IMG/VR virus record: IMGVR_UViG_2541047897_000006
Strand: one strand, 5' to 3'
DNA: 9,974 bases
Source: a virus
Lineage: Duplodnaviria; Heunggongvirae; Uroviricota; Caudoviricetes
In this document: positions 3,326 through 8,553 of the stretch, one piece after another
Layout: each line of letters begins with the position of its first letter
How positions within the stretch are numbered: position 1 is the stretch's first letter
Made by a program: the position numbers and the translations under genes
The notes under the pieces: model-generated
What the model saw: only the letters and a program-made list of their open reading frames with translations
Databases searched by the model: none
Told to the model about the DNA's origin: nothing

Positions 3326-3553
3326 ATGATGGCCCGAAATATAAAAATGGCAACGGATGCGCAGAACTGGTTACAGGCGCGCGGGAGTCATGTAAATGAA
3401 TCATATCTCGGCGTGGCGCGTCCGATTCTTGAAATCACTTACCCACCGGTGGAACTGGTAAAAAGCGCGGTCAGAATTATGGAGCATAAGTCCGGGGTGG
3501 CCCGTTCTGTATGGACGGCCCGTCTTAATGGTTGCCAGATTATCTGGAGATAA
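3326..3553 (+). CDS. kil: Small early protein, probable Kil (host-killing) by position
   Basis: 75-aa ORF with a strong AAGGAG RBS 8 nt upstream. It is the first gene after B, which is where kil (about 74 aa) maps in Mu. The sequence has no diagnostic motif, so the assignment is positional only. Confidence 0.45.
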
Positions 3554-3555
3554 CG

Positions 3556-3786
3556 ATGTGTATTAAAGCTGAAAAATATATTGAATGGGTTAAACACTGT
3601 CAGTGCCACGGGGTGCCGCTGACGACATATAAATGCCCCGGATGTGGTGAACAGATTATGACGCAATGCTCACCCGAAAAGGAAATTCGGGATTCCCTGA
3701 CATGTTGTCCGTGGTGCAGCGCGGTTTTCTTTAAGCAGGTAAAAGGCGCGAAGGTAAAAGCCAGCGCAGTTATTCAGAATCAATAA
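3556..3786 (+). CDS. Cys-rich small protein, putative zinc ribbon (function unknown)
   Basis: The ATG at 3556 is preceded by GGAGA and sits 2 nt after the upstream stop; the ORF track extends the frame to 3532 but the RBS favours 3556. The protein contains HCQCH, CPGCG and CCPWC, with CxxC pairs about 20 residues apart. Confidence 0.65.
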   Translation: MCIKAEKYIEWVKHCQCHGVPLTTYKCPGCGEQIMTQCSPEKEIRDSLTCCPWCSAVFFKQVKGAKVKASAVIQNQ

Positions 3787-3797
3787 GGAGAAACAAA

Positions 3798-4067
3798 ATG
3801 GCAAAGGTTATCTTTGAGTTTACATGGCTGGAAAGTAGTGACGGTTGCAATGGGCGCAGAGAAGTTCTGGATGCAAAAGCATGTCTTGCAGATATCTCGC
3901 CAACGGAAAATACCGGGCCTCATGATTTACTGGCAAATATCGTCCTGACTATGGCTCCTGAAATTATTAAAAAGGCCAAAGATGAGATGCTGACCACTAT
4001 GAAGAAAGTGGGTATGGAAGCTGAATGTGATTTAGTACCACATCCGGTGAATGCGGTTAAACATTAA
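3798..4067 (+). CDS. Hypothetical early protein (89 aa)
   Basis: AAGGAG RBS with 7-nt spacing. The ORF is tightly packed in the + strand early operon. I recognise no motif. Confidence 0.65.
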   Translation: MAKVIFEFTWLESSDGCNGRREVLDAKACLADISPTENTGPHDLLANIVLTMAPEIIKKAKDEMLTTMKKVGMEAECDLVPHPVNAVKH

Positions 4068-4087
4068 TTCGCAAAGGAACGCTGACA

Positions 4088-4507
4088 ATGAACGTCAAAA
4101 TCCGAAATGAAATTCAGGCATTAATCCGAATTCAGGAACGCAATAACAACGGTGGTGAATTACGCGAGTTTATTTGCGCCCGAAAAGTTGATGATTGTGG
4201 TGAAAAGACTTACCTGATTGCTTTCGACCATTACAGCATCTGTGCGCGTTATTGCGGCGAAAGCATATCCCGCGCCATTGCATTTGGCGGTGCGTTCAAC
4301 GTGGATTTATGGGAGTACGTCATGGACCGGGAATACATCTGCGCATCAGACCCTGAAGCCCGTGAAATGTGGCAGCGTATCTGGCGCGATTACCGGTTAA
4401 TGGCAAAAGGCTGGGCGCGCAGCTGTTATTCCTCGCTTGCCCTGAAAGCGGTTCAGTTATCGCTGCGGCATATTCCGGCATCACTGCGCGAGCCTCTGTT
4501 GTACTGA
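4088..4507 (+). CDS. Hypothetical early protein (139 aa), possible Cys cluster
   Basis: AAAGGAA RBS with 7-nt spacing. The stop is immediately followed by the next ORF's start. Cysteines in FICARKVDDCGEKT...SICARYCGES could form a metal site, but this is uncertain. Confidence 0.65.
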   Translation: MNVKIRNEIQALIRIQERNNNGGELREFICARKVDDCGEKTYLIAFDHYSICARYCGESISRAIAFGGAFNVDLWEYVMDREYICASDPEAREMWQRIWRDYRLMAKGWARSCYSSLALKAVQLSLRHIPASLREPLLY

Positions 4508-4807
4508 ATGGTAGCTGACATGAAGTGTAATCGTAAGCGCTGGTCACGCGAAGACCGGGAATTTATCGAGGCCAACGTCGGGAAAATGACCGTTGAAGAA
4601 ATGGCGGAAAAACTGAAAGTCGCCACAACCGCCCTCCGGGCACATGCCAGAAGGCACGGAATATCATTGTGTGCATACCGAATCAGTGAACACGACAAAT
4701 ATTTGTGTCGTGAGCTTTATAAGGAAGGGCTGGCTATTCATGTCATTGCCCGAAAGATGGAATTAAGCAATCGAGCTGTATCCAGCATTGTATACAGCGG
4801 ATATTAA
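4508..4807 (+). CDS. Hypothetical small protein with two helix-turn-helix-like segments (putative DNA-binding)
   Basis: 99-aa ORF abutting the upstream stop (TGAATG). Two internal segments (MTVEEMAEKLKVATTALRAHARRHGI and LAIHVIARKMELSNRAVSSIVYSGY) have an HTH-like hydrophobic/charged pattern. The start could be ATG 4508 or ATG 4520; neither has a strong RBS. Confidence 0.6.
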   Translation: MVADMKCNRKRWSREDREFIEANVGKMTVEEMAEKLKVATTALRAHARRHGISLCAYRISEHDKYLCRELYKEGLAIHVIARKMELSNRAVSSIVYSGY

Positions 4808-4826: not shown

Positions 4827-5351
4827 ATGGCTAAACCAGCAAAACGTATCAAAAGTGCCGCAGCGGCTTATGTGCCACAAAACCGCGATGCGGTGATTAC
4901 CGATATTAAACGCATCGGGGATTTACAGCGCGAAGCATCACGTCTGGAAACGGAAATGAATGATGCCATCGCGGAAATTACGGAGAAATTTGCAGCCCGG
5001 ATTGCACCGATTAAAACCGATATTGAAACCCTTTCAAAAGGCGTTCAGGGATGGTGTGAAGCGAACCGCGACGAACTGACAAACGGCGGCAAAGTGAAGA
5101 CGGCGAATCTTGTCACCGGTGATGTATCGTGGCGGGTCCGTCCACCCTCAGTAAGTATTCGTGGTATGGATGCAGTGATGGAAACGCTGGAGCGTCTTGG
5201 CCTGCAACGCTTTATTCGCACGAAGCAGGAAATCAACAAGGAGGCGATTTTACTGGAACCAAAAGCCGTCGCAGGTGTTGCCGGAATTACGGTTAAATCA
5301 GGCATTGAAGATTTTTCTATTATTCCGTTTGAACAGGAAGCCGGTATTTAA
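4827..5351 (+). CDS. gam: Host-nuclease inhibitor Gam (Mu Gam, Ku-like DNA-end-binding protein)
   Basis: 174-aa ORF with an AGGAG RBS 9 nt upstream. The protein (MAKPAKRIKSAAAAYVPQNRDAVITDIKR...) matches phage Mu Gam as I recall it, in both length and sequence. Confidence 0.93.
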   Translation: MAKPAKRIKSAAAAYVPQNRDAVITDIKRIGDLQREASRLETEMNDAIAEITEKFAARIAPIKTDIETLSKGVQGWCEANRDELTNGGKVKTANLVTGDVSWRVRPPSVSIRGMDAVMETLERLGLQRFIRTKQEINKEAILLEPKAVAGVAGITVKSGIEDFSIIPFEQEAGI

Positions 5352-5448
5352 TACCACCATTAATATTTAATTAATTCACATTCGTTTAATTATGGCGCGA
5401 TGCGTCAGGGGACTACTCGCGCCTTAATCAGAACCGGAGAGAATGAAA

Positions 5449-5997
5449 ATGACAGCATGTGCTTATTTTAAACTGAGTGACACAGCCGCTAACGCTTATA
5501 CGATTCGCTGGCTGAAAGACGTTTCTGTTAAGCGTGGTGAGATTATTGCGTCATTACAGCAATCAGTGAAAGCAAGTGGTGTGTCTTTGTCTGGTGACAA
5601 AGGGCCTGAAAGGGTTACGCGTGTCTGGTTTAACCGTTTACCACCGGAAGGATGGGAGATTAAATCAAGGACACTTTTCATTGGTGATATTCAGTTATGG
5701 GGCGCAATGCCGGATATGACAATACCGGCAGGCCGTGAGTACGGGAAGCTCATCCGGGACTGTGAAAATCAGCTCGAAAAACACCCGGATTTTCCGGGCT
5801 GGCTGTGCAATGAACTTAACGTGGCTACCGACGTTGACCTGTTTGACATCAGGTCCGTGTGGAAAATGCACCACAGCCGTGACGGATTCAGCATTTTGTT
5901 TGCAGTGTACCTTCTGGCTGGCGAAGTGAAGGGACCGGTTCCCGCCGAATGCCAGCGCATTAAACATTCTGAATTTGTGGCGCTGACGGAGGAATAA
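5449..5997 (+). CDS. Hypothetical early protein (about 182 aa)
   Basis: The frame opens at ATG 5443, but the GGAGAG RBS at 5436-5441 is correctly spaced (7 nt) only for the in-frame ATG at 5449. It is the first gene after the 91-bp gam-distal intergenic gap. I recognise no motif. Confidence 0.65.
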   Translation: MTACAYFKLSDTAANAYTIRWLKDVSVKRGEIIASLQQSVKASGVSLSGDKGPERVTRVWFNRLPPEGWEIKSRTLFIGDIQLWGAMPDMTIPAGREYGKLIRDCENQLEKHPDFPGWLCNELNVATDVDLFDIRSVWKMHHSRDGFSILFAVYLLAGEVKGPVPAECQRIKHSEFVALTEE

Positions 5998-6000
5998 CCG

Positions 6001-6531
6001 GTGATTGATGCAAAAGTTCTGAATGGTGTCAGCACATTATTACGGGCTTACGGGCGTCTGACCTGCGGGGTTCTGGCTGAAAAAATGCAGATGCCATCCT
6101 CCGCAATGGTGTACTTCCTGCGTGATGCGGTTGATGCCGGAATGCTGACTGAACTTAATGGTTTTTACGACGTACCGCGTCCCCGTACAGAGCAGCCTGT
6201 AAGACGAAACGCAACTGAGCAGCCTGCTGTTGATGATGCCGCGTGGTGTTCCTTCCGCCGCTCATTGCCCTGGCTAGAAGGCAATGCCATTCCGGCGCTG
6301 GCAAAAGAATTTGCAACAGGCGTACTGACCTGCGAGTCGGTTTACATCGTTGCGGAAGTGGATGACGAAATGTGCAAACAGGGAATGCCCCGTTTTGTGA
6401 TGGCTTATATCGATATCCGGCTGGGGCGTTTTATTTGTGGTTCCAGTAGCTGGAATATCACCGACCACGTCCTGCGCTATCTCATTCTTGATTTCTCAAC
6501 GGCTCCCGAAGCAGCACAGGAGGTGGCGTGA
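6001..6531 (+). CDS. Hypothetical early protein (176 aa), GTG start, possible N-terminal winged-helix
   Basis: GTG at 6001 is preceded by GGAGGA at 5988-5993 and is the only in-frame start near the 5' end. The N-terminal segment STLLRAYGRLTCGVLAEKMQMPSSAMVYFLRDAVDAGML resembles a winged-helix DNA-binding fold (weak inference). The stop overlaps the next start. Confidence 0.6.
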   Translation: MIDAKVLNGVSTLLRAYGRLTCGVLAEKMQMPSSAMVYFLRDAVDAGMLTELNGFYDVPRPRTEQPVRRNATEQPAVDDAAWCSFRRSLPWLEGNAIPALAKEFATGVLTCESVYIVAEVDDEMCKQGMPRFVMAYIDIRLGRFICGSSSWNITDHVLRYLILDFSTAPEAAQEVA

Positions 6532-7061
6532 TGTTTTTTAAAACGTCAAATCCCGCAGCACTGCTGGCGTGGGAGCAGTTTATGGCGGACTGCCTGAAAC
6601 TACGCGAAGAAGCCCGCCATCTTGATAAGGTTCTGGGTTGTGGTTGCCGGTCAGTATTCAGCACAGGTATTGGTGGGCGTTATTTTCATGGTGTGAACTT
6701 TCCGGGGAATGAGCGCCCTTTCTCGCGGGAGCTGTGGACCGTACAACGGCCCGCATCAGGTAACAGTTGCAGGCCCAGAACTTCGCGGATACCTGTTCAT
6801 CTCAGGGAGCAGGCAAAAGAGCTGGCGAAAATATGGCAGGAGAATATTCCGGTCACTTATGCCCGCACAGATGCTCTTTTACCCGCACTGGGACTGGATT
6901 TCAGCGCAACAATATTCGGACCTCTCCAGTGGTTCCGTGTTGGTGATGTGATTTACGTCATGACGGGGATGACACCCGCACAAGGCCGCATGACTGAAAT
7001 CCTTTCTGACGAATTTATCCGGGCGCAAAAACAGGCGGAGGTAAACAATGGAAAACAATGA
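6531..7061 (+). CDS. Hypothetical early protein (about 176 aa)
   Basis: AGGAGG RBS at 6518-6523. ATG 6531 shares a nucleotide with the upstream TGA stop (TGATG coupling); the ORF track starts one codon earlier at GTG 6528. I recognise no motif. Confidence 0.65.
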   Translation: MFFKTSNPAALLAWEQFMADCLKLREEARHLDKVLGCGCRSVFSTGIGGRYFHGVNFPGNERPFSRELWTVQRPASGNSCRPRTSRIPVHLREQAKELAKIWQENIPVTYARTDALLPALGLDFSATIFGPLQWFRVGDVIYVMTGMTPAQGRMTEILSDEFIRAQKQAEVNNGKQ

Positions 7062-7230
7062 AACATCGTATTCGTGGCTGGGGGTATTCACCACGGTGAA
7101 ACAGGAATGCCAGACCTGCGGTAATGAATCCCCTGAATATCTGAAAGAGTGCCCTCATTGTGGCGGGCAGAAATGCAACCACTGCGATATGGGCGATGAC
7201 ACGGCGTGCATGAATTGTGAAGGTGAATAA
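7048..7230 (+). CDS. Cys-rich mini-protein with four CxxC motifs (putative zinc ribbon)
   Basis: 60-aa ORF with a GGAGG RBS 7 nt upstream. It contains CQTC, CPHC, CNHC and CMNC. Its 5' end overlaps the upstream ORF by 14 nt in another frame. Confidence 0.6.
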   Translation: MENNETSYSWLGVFTTVKQECQTCGNESPEYLKECPHCGGQKCNHCDMGDDTACMNCEGE

Positions 7231-7231
7231 T

Positions 7232-7534
7232 ATGAATAATGAAACTAAATTTACTCCCCTTAATATTGATAACGTCATGGCTGAAAAAGGGATGCTGGAA
7301 CGTGTTCGCGCTATCGTTGAATATGGTATTAAGCATGAACTCACCGCCAGAGAAGTCCGTGACATTATCAACCGCGAAATGAATCGTCTGGAAACAGTAG
7401 TGGCACTGCAAAATGAAACAGCCCGCGAGGAGTACATCCGCCGCAGGCTGGGGTTATCAGACCAGGATATTGTTACTGACGCTCATGTGTTTGAGGCTTT
7501 TGAGATCCGTCAGCATCTGGGCCTTACGAACTGA
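7232..7534 (+). CDS. Hypothetical early protein (about 100 aa)
   Basis: ATG 7232 is preceded by GAAGGTGA with 5-nt spacing; the ORF track alternative is GTG 7217. It starts 1 nt after the upstream stop. I recognise no motif. Confidence 0.6.
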   Translation: MNNETKFTPLNIDNVMAEKGMLERVRAIVEYGIKHELTAREVRDIINREMNRLETVVALQNETAREEYIRRRLGLSDQDIVTDAHVFEAFEIRQHLGLTN

Positions 7535-7545
7535 TGTGTAAATTC

Positions 7546-7567
7546 AGGCGGTGTTGCAGCACCGCCT
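7546..7567 (+). promoter_or_regulatory. GC-rich hairpin in the 51-bp gap upstream of gemA (possible attenuator or RNA stability/processing element)
   Basis: AGGCGGTG-ttgcag-CACCGCCT forms an 8-bp stem with a 6-nt loop, followed by CTTTCC and then the gemA RBS GGAGGT. The T-tract is weak, so it is not a classic strong intrinsic terminator. Confidence 0.3.
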
Positions 7568-7585
7568 CTTTCCGGAGGTACGATC

Positions 7586-8137
7586 ATGAATCGCACATCC
7601 CTGATTAAATTAATCCATGTCGCCCGTCGGGAGCTACAACTCGACGACGACACTTACCGCGCTTTTCTGATGCAGAAAACGGGCAAAATCAGTTGCCGCG
7701 AGCTGACGGTTACGCAACTGGAACAGGTGCTCAATGCCATGAAAGAACGCGGCTTTAAGAAGCAGAATAAACACCCACGCCGTCGGTTTAAGGGGCATGT
7801 CACGCCCCGTGAGAAGGTGTATAAAATCTGGCAGCAGATGGCAGAAGACGGTTTTATTACCGATGGTGGTGATGTGGCGCTGGACAGATATGTTCAGCGC
7901 CTGACAGCGAAACGTAATGGCGGACAGGGTGTTTCCACGCTGGCGTGGTGCCACGGAGAATCGTTGCAGGTTGTGCTTGAAACACTCAAGCAGTGGCACA
8001 TCCGCTGTATTCGTGAAGCCTTTTCCCGTCACGGGCTTCCGTTGCCGGTCAGTCCGTCCGGGCGTGAACTGCGCGGCTATGATGCCATGACGGCGGCTTA
8101 TGCCCATGCCAGAAAGACACGGAGGATGGCACAATGA
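7586..8137 (+). CDS. gemA: GemA-like protein (Mu gp16 family)
   Basis: 183-aa ORF with a GGAGGT RBS. It lies immediately upstream of mor and overlaps it (ATGA), as gemA does in Mu. The call rests on position and size; I cannot search the sequence. Confidence 0.75.
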   Translation: MNRTSLIKLIHVARRELQLDDDTYRAFLMQKTGKISCRELTVTQLEQVLNAMKERGFKKQNKHPRRRFKGHVTPREKVYKIWQQMAEDGFITDGGDVALDRYVQRLTAKRNGGQGVSTLAWCHGESLQVVLETLKQWHIRCIREAFSRHGLPLPVSPSGRELRGYDAMTAAYAHARKTRRMAQ

Positions 8138-8523
8138 CGGAAGATTTATTTGGTGATTTGCAGGATGACACCATTCTGGCACATCTTGACAATCCCGCAG
8201 AGGATACGTCACGCTTTCCGGCACTGCTGGCGGAGCTGAACGATTTACTGCGCGGGGAATTGTCCCGGCTGGGTGTTGATCCTGCCCATTCACTGGAGAT
8301 TGTTGTGGCTATCTGTAAGCATCTGGGCGGTGGTCAGGTCTACATTCCACGCGGTCAGGTTCTGGACTCGCTGATTCGGGATTTGCGTATCTGGAATGAT
8401 TTTAACGGTCGCAACGTCAGCGAACTGACCACCCGTTATGGTGTCACTTTCAACACGGTTTACAAGGCTATTCGCCGGATGCGACGGCTGAAATACCGCC
8501 AGTACCAGCCCTCACTTCTGTAA
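8134..8523 (+). CDS. mor: Middle operon regulator Mor (transcription activator of Pm)
   Basis: 129-aa ORF with a GGAGGA RBS 7 nt upstream. The protein (MTEDLFGDLQDDTILAHLDNPAED...) matches Mu Mor as I recall it. Its C-terminal half is a paralogue of the C protein downstream: compare GGGQVYIPRG...IWNDFNGRNVSEL with GGRQFYIPCG...LYCQFNGRNMEEL. Confidence 0.9.
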   Translation: MTEDLFGDLQDDTILAHLDNPAEDTSRFPALLAELNDLLRGELSRLGVDPAHSLEIVVAICKHLGGGQVYIPRGQVLDSLIRDLRIWNDFNGRNVSELTTRYGVTFNTVYKAIRRMRRLKYRQYQPSLL

Positions 8524-8528
8524 ACAGT

Positions 8529-8553
8529 AAAGCCGGTTAATCCGGCTTTTTTT
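8529..8553 (+). terminator. Rho-independent terminator at the end of the early operon
   Basis: AAAGCCGG-ttaat-CCGGCTTT stem-loop followed by a run of seven T residues, 6 nt after the mor stop codon. Confidence 0.8.

Follow-up and report, generated by a model that had tools for sequence, protein, structure and literature searches.

The gap after gam in the early operon of a Muvirus

The DNA analysed here (the window, 9,974 nt in full) is the left, early end of a Muvirus. Between positions 4800 and 6100 it is 97.6% identical to Yersinia phage vB_YpM_Tongde by nucleotide comparison, and its gam gene shares 96–98% nucleotide identity with the gam genes of Mu and Tongde (96% for Mu). In Mu itself, the early transcript starts at Pe and ends after mor. 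In the window, the stop codon of gam (TAA, 5349-5351) is followed by a gap of 91 nt (5352-5442) that extends up to the first ATG of the next open reading frame (ORF). The Shine–Dalgarno (SD) sequence of this ORF stands 3 nt from the first ATG (5443) and 9 nt from a second one (5449); since the second ATG is better spaced and is the start annotated in Tongde, the untranslated stretch is probably 97 nt long. The features of the region are as follows.

4827-5351, + strand: gam, host-nuclease inhibitor, final gene of the conserved early block (Pfam Phage_Mu_Gam, E = 4e-42)
5352-5393, + strand: G-depleted AT-rich tract, presumably single-stranded in the mRNA (15 A, 19 T, 7 C, 1 G)
5366-5371, + strand: distal TTTAAT box (recognized by eye in an anchored listing of variants, not quantified)
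5385-5390, + strand: proximal TTTAAT box, 3 nt before the stem
5394-5423, + strand: imperfect GC hairpin (fold, inverted repeat and covariance-model match)
5424-5431, + strand: conserved 3' flank TTAATCAG (alignments; family consensus GAAWYCAG)
5436-5439, + strand: SD sequence GGAG of the first accessory gene, 12 nt past the stem (from the sequence)
5443-5997, + strand: first accessory gene, SfMu gp11 homolog (65% identity to SfMu gp11)
6001-6531, + strand: Mu gp11 homolog (Pfam Gp11_C, E = 3e-38); in Mu this gene directly follows the element
7586-8137, + strand: GemA (Pfam)
8134-8523, + strand: Mor (Pfam Mor, E = 4e-33)
8529-8549, + strand: intrinsic terminator after mor, the sole strong + strand terminator-like site downstream of the element

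The product of ORF 5443-5997 matched no Pfam family. SfMu gp11 is labelled DUF5420 in RefSeq.

The original prediction had singled out the gap after gam as the largest of the early operon, and the listing of ORFs and gaps bears this out, as no other gap of the operon is longer on the + strand. Its description as an AT-rich tract followed by a bulged GC hairpin without a U-tract was also confirmed, in sequence and in coordinates (the AT-rich string quoted there lies at 5360-5393). However, the accompanying statement that all other early junctions measure 0–25 bp does not hold, since A and B are separated by 38 bp (2334-2371) and gemA is preceded by 51 bp (7535-7585). The gap before gemA also holds a GC hairpin of the non-terminator type, a few nucleotides 5' of the ribosome-binding site (RBS), both in the window and in Mu.

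The AT content of the tract is 81%, compared with 40–57% GC (mostly near 50%) in the 300-nt bins of the window. It is the sole 42-nt stretch with at most one G in the 9974 nt (mean, 11.4 G per 42 nt), and it runs against the positive GC skew seen in most of the window. The outer stem of the hairpin is formed by GGCGCGA (5394-5400) and TCGCGCC (5417-5423), with 16 nt between the arms; a 3 × 3 internal loop leads to an inner stem, GTC (5404-5406) with GAC (5411-5413), which is closed by the loop AGGG (5407-5410). A repeat finder extended the arms to 12 nt (5389-5400 and 5417-5428, 92% complementary). In isolation the hairpin folds with −16.2 kcal/mol (z = −3.19), a value equalled by 1 of 200 shuffled sequences, whereas the surrounding 121-nt region is unexceptional (z = −1.04).

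Conservation of the element and exchange of its neighbours

This element is not a chance feature: it lies far beyond chance because it is conserved in dozens of diverged relatives and because the composition of its tract is unique in the window. Homologous copies occupy the same place in Mu, D108, SfMu and Yersinia Mu-like phages. The gam-gp11 gap of Mu measures 98 bp. Across these phages the gap is nearly invariant from the gam stop codon to a few bases past the hairpin; the homology between Mu and the window ends just past the 3' flank, with divergence from about 5432. Among complete Escherichia coli genomes, 321 of 5426 contain a match, with a median of one place per genome having any (maximum 4), and the match lay under or beside an annotated Gam gene in 40 of the 40 rows listed, that is, for at least 40 of the E. 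coli matches. A sliding identity profile of the window against the diverged O157-type Mu-like prophages, covering gam, the gap and the next gene, reached 80–90% at 5388-5417 as against ∼45–80%, mostly near 60%, in gam; scores above that of the element were confined to the final 50 nt of the downstream gene.

Retrieval guided by Gam, from one genome per species and from IMG/VR, yielded further homologous copies in prophages of Kluyvera and of Aeromonas piscicola as well as on numerous viral contigs. Twenty-four representatives served to build a covariance model, which matched the window at 5380-5437 (57.1 bits, E about 1e-13) and gave 41 + strand matches in 100 sources, one per positive locus and directly after gam; the Mu genome contains a single copy, at 6354-6411. 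The element is thus found once per genome, always on the transcribed strand and at the same junction. Its absence is also common: at 57 of the 107 unique gam loci no gap follows gam, so the element is dispensable for the Mu lifestyle. Where non-homologous lineages have a genuine gap of at least 45 nt, 9 of 12 carry an unrelated, significantly stable hairpin (z < −2.7), a count that we curated from 19 rows classed as 'other' after seven rows with a gap of 40 had been excluded as artefacts of the ORF finder. No adjacent U-run was seen at the unrelated post-gam hairpins that were inspected.

The hairpin itself is present in 40 of 40 unique variants, at the same start position, with folding energies between −8 and −28 kcal/mol (−14 or lower in all but one). 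Its five basal pairs are kept in 31–32 of the 32 unique hairpins of the GGCG type. Basal pair 5 is CG in 26 of them, TA in five and TG in one, a compensatory change from CG to UA with a UG intermediate. As the other four basal pairs are essentially invariant, they are uninformative on covariation either way, and double changes are confined to this one pair. Above the basal stem there is an internal loop or bulge, then a short inner stem of varying register and a G-rich apex, YC-R-GGGG, in whose G-run single changes are tolerated at each position (GGAG, GGTG, GAGG and GGGA). In a clade represented by locus L142, a homologous 5' half pairs with a different and longer 3' arm (14–15 bp), which points to selection for pairing and not for a half-site. 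In the model-fitted alignment 74.6% of the cells were paired, compared with 32–51% when the partners were slid, and double-change cells numbered 18 against 11.5 expected, a modest excess reached by 4 of 500 shuffles. The sense strand folded slightly better than the antisense strand in 18 of 28 cases (P = 0.014, for sequences that are not independent of each other). The mismatches in the basal stem (two cells of the G.U type and two of the A.C type) are uninformative as to strand, and the AU pairs flanking the stem from below are not consistently maintained across the variants. The original prediction had asked whether the hairpin is conserved with compensatory changes in related phages: conservation stands, together with one covarying pair and the re-pairing of the L142-type hairpins; covariation as a whole is thin.

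Conservation also extends to sequence. Copies ranging from those of E. coli to those of Aeromonas share the apex YC-R-GGGG and the flank GAAWYCAG. For a passive stem-loop, the sequence conservation of the 5' half of the stem with its apex (GCGTCAGGG) and of the 3' flank is higher than necessary, which hints at a specific partner. On the 5' side, the tract measures ∼30–50 nt in 29 variants and consists of 78% A+T, 17% C and 5% G, with more C than G in 28 of the 29; such a strand-asymmetric depletion of G indicates RNA rather than duplex DNA. A TTWAAW word stands 2–3 nt 5' of the stem in most variants, positions T7, T8, A10 and T12 of this proximal box being at least 90% conserved (alignment A2), and words resembling TTTAAT, TTTAAA or TTTGAT lie ∼9–13 nt upstream of it in several families (by eye, not quantified). 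On the 3' side, a purine-rich AGG/GGA stretch that we read as an SD sequence follows the hairpin by ∼5–20 nt in the families listed (by eye).

The genes on either side of the element change from phage to phage. A pattern scan of IMG/VR returned 98 matches. In 82 of them gam lies on the same strand, the alignment to Gam ending 30–49 nt before the stem in 81 and ∼260 nt before it in one; the others comprise one match cut by the end of its contig, five GC-rich chance matches and 10 genuine copies that follow a different gene. Four of these 10 were examined and belong to Mu-like phages (ner, A, B and small genes) in which the preceding gene encodes a 205-aa protein; that of locus L188 is a DUF3164 protein (Pfam, E = 7e-87). 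Klebsiella phage Kp4866-3 matches the DUF3164 stretch of L188 and carries the element, which follows gam in the Bcepmuvirus Escherichia phage PhiKM; the element was absent from the Mu-like phages of Shewanella and Vibrio with DUF3164. On the downstream side, at least eight unrelated families supply the first gene in the phages that bear the element, among them DUF5420-like genes, Mu gp11, an 88-aa, a ∼165-aa and a Cys-rich 64-aa protein, and a homologous pair of 174 aa (L145 and L146). Relative to Mu, the DUF5420-like gene of the window is an insertion between the last conserved CAG of the element (5429-5431) and the RBS of gp11. As judged from these alignments, recombination joints flank the element on both sides and the element itself is retained; sequence comparison thus places it as the border between the core early genes and swappable accessory genes. 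The original prediction, which saw in the gap a possible site setting apart a downstream block of five genes, understated its position: what follows this fixed border is an exchangeable cargo region that ends with gemA-mor.

Comparison with known regulatory elements

As had been predicted, the gap is not an intrinsic terminator. It has a GC-rich stem-loop at a gene end in common with such signals, but the stem is broken by an internal loop, no U-run (at least five U in 8 nt) follows it in any family, and no terminator-like site was found in the gap. The tails after the stem are A-rich or mixed in all the variants listed, for example CUUAAUCAG, CUGAAACAG and CGAAUUCAG. A terminator acting on the minus strand was also considered and rejected: the tail is A-rich except in Aeromonas, and there is no U-run.

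Rfam 15 contained no family near its gathering score at the element. At E ≤ 1 the window had a sole match, at 2245-2284, to the model of an unrelated snoRNA, which scored 19 bits where the gathering score is 40; neither tRNA nor tmRNA was found. An ATG ORF of 11 codons at 5392-5427 (MARCVRGLLAP) was discarded because its frame is not conserved (by eye): a 1-nt indel shifts it in the O157-type, in Mu it extends to 21 codons, and the Kluyvera-type has no such ATG. A CsrA site was rejected since about half of the variants have an apex without GGA (e.g. CAGGGGUU, CAGGGCUU and CGUGGGCUU). An RNase III site, for which a mostly continuous helix of ∼20 bp is expected, does not fit hairpins of 8–12 pairs in 29–30 nt (GGCG type) or of 14–15 pairs (L142 type), both interrupted by internal loops or bulges. 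A REP sequence or other dispersed host palindrome is incompatible with a median of one place per E. coli genome, where many copies would be expected. A long-range clamp between the tract and the downstream SD sequence appeared in single minimum free energy folds only; the region scores z = −1.04 and its lower stem is not consistently paired, and the clamp was dropped. An operator for Com was set aside because the com-mom leader of Mu is dissimilar and the Mu genome has no second model copy. Resemblances to a DnaA box or to MuA end sites (TTCAC..CGAA) were in the wrong orientation or not conserved (by eye). The site bound by Mor consists of 5-bp inverted repeats with a 6-bp spacer (PMC4390567), a geometry that the hairpin does not fit. 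As for published descriptions, the full-text literature searched contained neither a description of the gap nor RNA ends or half-lives for it, an earlier mention being possible in the older Mu literature, such as the 1986 gam sequence paper; the HnrS paper mentions the Mu-like prophage Sp18 only as lost from a mutant (PMC13502914).

Two further elements share part of the layout. Operons with horizontally exchanged genes can carry the ops (JUMPStart) element; it is read by RfaH and has the consensus GGCGGTAGnnTG. The element described here also lies inside a long operon with such genes, and the 5' arm of the Kluyvera-type, GGCGC-TAGCGTC, fits 10 of 12 ops positions (by eye). However, in the ops core GGCGGTAG, positions 5–7 (G, T and A) are those read by RfaH, and the corresponding positions vary or differ among the 32 unique hairpins (C-GAT, C-TC, C-TT and T-CA). 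The resemblance is limited to GGCG...GCGT, and ops was rejected. The other is the lambda nutR/tR1 region, with boxA, boxB and rutA/rutB; the consensus of boxA, which lies upstream of the boxB hairpin, is CGCUCUUA or GCUCUUUAACAA. As in lambda, an early gene is followed by a first long untranslated stretch, which the element occupies, with a G-poor tract interrupted by a GC hairpin, upstream of genes that decide the next developmental step. Unlike in lambda, there is no conserved boxA, the apex is unlike boxB, the AU content of the tract is far above that of a typical rut site, ahead of mor no downstream terminator is predicted, and no N-like protein was found among the eight window proteins scanned. 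A lambda-type nut site was discarded by inspection, a boxA-like CUCUUUAA being present in L151 and L153 only, and the window having UUCGUUUAA. The put sites of HK022 have two hairpins, against one here.

The closest known kinds are, by analogy, intercistronic stem-loops for mRNA processing and stability and, in layout, the lambda cro-nutR-tR1 arrangement. The former include the RNase E processing site of papBA, the 5' stem-loop of ompA and the REP stabilisers of malE-malF. Like these, the element is a stable hairpin without a U-tract in a polycistronic transcript, adjoining an AU-rich single strand; it lies between genes that plausibly need different expression, and its proposed action in cis would be independent of its neighbours. 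Unlike REP sequences it is single-copy, phage-specific and not a dispersed repeat, and unlike the processing and stability stem-loops in general its sequence, and not its shape alone, is conserved across genera. That the element is real and widely conserved is clear, and its general type is familiar; it does not demonstrably belong to any named family.

Possible roles in the early transcript

On the basis of the observed anatomy and conservation, we tentatively propose that the gap is a cis-acting RNA punctuation element of the early transcript, with an entry site for RNase E in the tract and a protective stem-loop behind it. Cleavage, protection and differential stability are inferred here by analogy with what is generally known of RNase E and of stem-loop stabilisers. 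The preferred substrates of RNase E are AU-rich single strands beside stem-loops, and stem-loops at 5' or 3' termini are known stabilisers of mRNA; the element presents an AU-rich segment adjoining a stable stem-loop on the transcribed strand. The tract would be entered and cut by RNase E, and after cleavage the stem-loop would lie within a few nucleotides of the new 5' end, where it could shield the distal mRNA (accessory genes, gemA and mor) from 5'-end-dependent decay. In molecules that are uncleaved or trimmed from the 3' end, the same stem might stop 3' exonucleases from running back into gam. In this manner, the amount and the lifetime of the mRNA would be uncoupled between the transposition-kil-gam block and the cargo-gemA-mor block. 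We propose that such an element works independently of its neighbours and therefore persists while the flanking genes are exchanged, and that, being conserved, it may double as a homology patch for gene exchange. An action at the RNA level is favoured by the depletion of G on the sense strand, the compensated or re-paired stem, the fixed orientation, the position in the longest untranslated stretch and the independence from the neighbours. The RNase processing site offered by the original prediction would agree with all of the observations, namely the features of the sense strand, the conserved stem-loop, the missing U-tract and the placement at a module border. Rho, ribosomal protein S1 or Hfq could make use of a G-poor tract just as well.

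Several other readings were weighed against this one. Control of elongation is possible but doubtful. The element could be a loading site for Rho that attenuates cargo-gemA-mor, its tract being split by the hairpin as in lambda cro-nutR-tR1, where a hairpin lies between rutA and rutB; or it could be a nut- or put-like site that makes the polymerase resistant to termination, so that any swapped-in cargo is crossed and the essential mor is still reached. Consistent with it are the excess of C over G (28 of 29 variants, 5% G), an untranslated stretch of ∼90 nt that no other in the operon exceeds, and the location ahead of a hypervariable region through which transcription has to pass on its way to mor, the first + strand terminator lying at 8529; so are the sequence conservation of the 5' half of the stem and its flanks, expected of a site read by the polymerase or by a factor, and the boxA-like word of L151 and L153. 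However, this word is not conserved across families and the apex of the single hairpin is unlike the boxB pentaloops. A rut site is typically C-rich, G-poor and unstructured over ∼70–80 nt, whereas the tract has 17% C, spans 30–50 nt and is interrupted by a hairpin, and ribosomes should shield the RNA from Rho because the next RBS lies within ∼10–25 nt. Comparison with Pfam revealed no N-like antiterminator among the eight proteins, a scan outside which small early ORFs such as 3326-4807 fall, and no special need for antitermination is evident since the cargo genes are tightly packed in the window and probably translationally coupled. An operator for a partner acting in trans is unlikely. Such a partner, either a protein (of the phage or the host) or a host sRNA that pairs with the G-rich apex, would adjust the initiation of translation of the first cargo gene or the decay of its mRNA; in a variant of this reading, a ribosome standby or insulator module would provide any inserted cassette with a defined RBS context. 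Such a reading would explain why YC-R-GGGG and GAAWYCAG are conserved from E. coli to Aeromonas, which a passive hairpin does not. In every family listed, a purine-rich SD-like stretch follows the end of the stem by a few to ∼20 nt (by eye), and the hairpin before gemA has the same position relative to its RBS. Against a partner in trans, the regulated gene differs from phage to phage, which makes gene-specific control unlikely, single changes are tolerated throughout the G-run of the loop, and the GGA required by CsrA is missing in about half of the variants. The element might also be a dedicated recognition site that is read either in the early RNA as it emerges or within the transcription bubble (a nut/put-like processive antitermination or anti-Rho module, or the operator of a phage or host RNA-binding factor), which we regard as distinctly improbable; it would be kept at the entrance of the cargo so that any cargo could be carried without cutting off the essential gemA-mor.

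Readings at the level of DNA fare less well. A homology patch for recombination of the cargo, an AT-rich site for H-NS, IHF or Fis, or a palindrome bound by a dimer would agree with the mosaic joints on both sides and with a tract of 81% AT in a window of mostly ∼50% GC, and palindromic protein-binding sites in DNA also keep symmetric changes, as a dimer site would. The original prediction had included a site for a nucleoid protein, and the window does hold a decamer, TCGTTTAATT (5382-5391), that fits the high-affinity motif of H-NS, tCG(t/a)T(a/t)AATT; however, it is not kept in Mu, which has TCTTTTAATT, or in the O157- and Kluyvera-types and other families. Duplex binding leaves the strand-asymmetric depletion of G unexplained, the L142-type keeps its 5' half and re-pairs with a new 3' arm, and a recombination patch accounts for the clustering of joints but not for the conservation of the patch itself. 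We hold a function at the DNA level to be very unlikely. An internal sigma-70 promoter, which the original prediction had offered after noting several promoter-like hexamers and which would drive the accessory block independently of Pe, is highly improbable. The DNA is AT-rich, with TAATAT (5361-5366) and AATTAT (5388-5393), and a position ahead of cargo genes recalls morons. However, the several promoter-like hexamers are not borne out, TAATAT being the one TAnnnT hexamer found in the tract (by eye), and neither the gap nor any of 77 unique variants contained a + strand pair of −35 and −10 hexamers at 9 of 12 positions (spacing of 16–18 bp, with A2 and T6 in the −10). Matches at 8 of 12 occurred on the + strand in only seven of the 77 variants, scattered from −26 to −1, and on the minus strand in the Mu-type only. 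The conserved TTTAAT box does not have the near-invariant A at −10 position 2, and transcription starting 7 nt after it would begin within the conserved stem and truncate it. A constitutive promoter here would moreover transcribe gemA-mor in lysogens, because there is no + strand terminator between 5443 and 8523 (the first lies at 8529).

Mu is a classical model phage, yet its gam-gp11 stretch is without annotation in the GenBank/RefSeq records examined, and no Rfam family covers it. The element is a candidate new RNA family and a reliable landmark for the cargo region in the Mu-like prophages that carry it. Kept from E. coli to Aeromonas while both of its neighbours are replaced, this non-coding element marks the fixed block for transposition and replication off from the exchangeable genes. 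If it serves as a signal for punctuation or elongation at the RNA level, this would account for expression of the cargo and of gemA-mor being set independently of that of the transposase, and it would be a portable insulator part; if it is a dedicated recognition site, it would be the first control point at the level of elongation or RNA to be described for the early operon of Mu.

The first accessory gene

The first gene after gam and its element (the G-poor, AT-rich tract and GC hairpin directly 3' of gam), at 5443-5997, is DUF5420-like and is inserted, relative to Mu, between the gam element and the gp11 homolog. Its last ∼50 nt (5950-5997) share 93-97% identity with the O157-type prophages, a diverged Mu-like group, whereas elsewhere the O157-type and window proteins match at only ∼36% of positions. 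This difference suggests a second recombination joint at the 3' end of the gene, overlapping the gp11 RBS (GAGGAATAA).

At the other end of the gene, two ATG codons lie in one frame at 5443 and 5449 (ATGAAAATG). ATG 5449 is the likelier start, because the Shine-Dalgarno GGAG (5436-5439) is spaced 9 nt from it versus 3 nt from ATG 5443. The second ATG is annotated as the start in the closely related Yersinia phage Tongde, and the first in SfMu.

Other junctions and composition of the window

A hairpin arranged like the gam element, the second of this kind in the window, precedes gemA, and short words of the element recur at the A-B junction.

7546-7567, in gap 7535-7585: GC hairpin without a U-run, before the gemA start at 7586
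2334-2371: A-B junction gap, 38 bp, 76% AT

The pre-gemA hairpin (GGCGGTG-TTGCAG-CACCGCC) is followed by TCTTTCC and the Shine-Dalgarno GGAGG, placing the gemA RBS just 3' of it. It folds at -18 kcal/mol with a z of only -1.96, and a near-identical copy is present in Mu (8192-8213). The A-B gap contains TTTAAA/TTTAAT words and, at its end just 5' of the B start, ATTCAG; the gam element has the same words, which may be a coincidence of AT-rich DNA. As a mirror image to the G-poor post-gam tract, 7210-7251 is the only stretch in the window with no more than one C per 42 nt (at least 78% AT); it lies within or near the overlap of genes 7048-7230 and 7217-7534.

Hairpins after gam in relatives

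In Escherichia phage PhiKM (locus L268), a minus-strand 'hypothetical protein' (1814-2035) has been annotated over the gam element and the start of a plus-strand zinc-finger-like gene, probably in error. Other hairpins follow gam in two groups of collected loci.

About 30-70 nt after gam: L142-type clade (IMG/VR contigs L142, L145-L147, L149-L153, L157)
10-15 nt after gam: separate conserved hairpin family (L042, L116, L119, L123, L134)

The L142-type clade, whose nearest isolates, judged by gam, share only ∼65% identity, retains the element's 5' half (GG[CT]ATGCCTGCCGGGGCTTCGTGCAC), paired with a different, longer 3' arm in a stem (GCCTGC-C-GGG/CCC-GCAGGC) of 14-15 bp and -21 to -27 kcal/mol. 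The second family, which includes Nitrosomonas (L042), has stems such as GATGGCG/CGCCATC and a TTAAAnCTAG loop. Its sequence is unrelated to that of the enterobacterial gam element, and this hairpin appears to be an analogue of it at the same post-gam junction.
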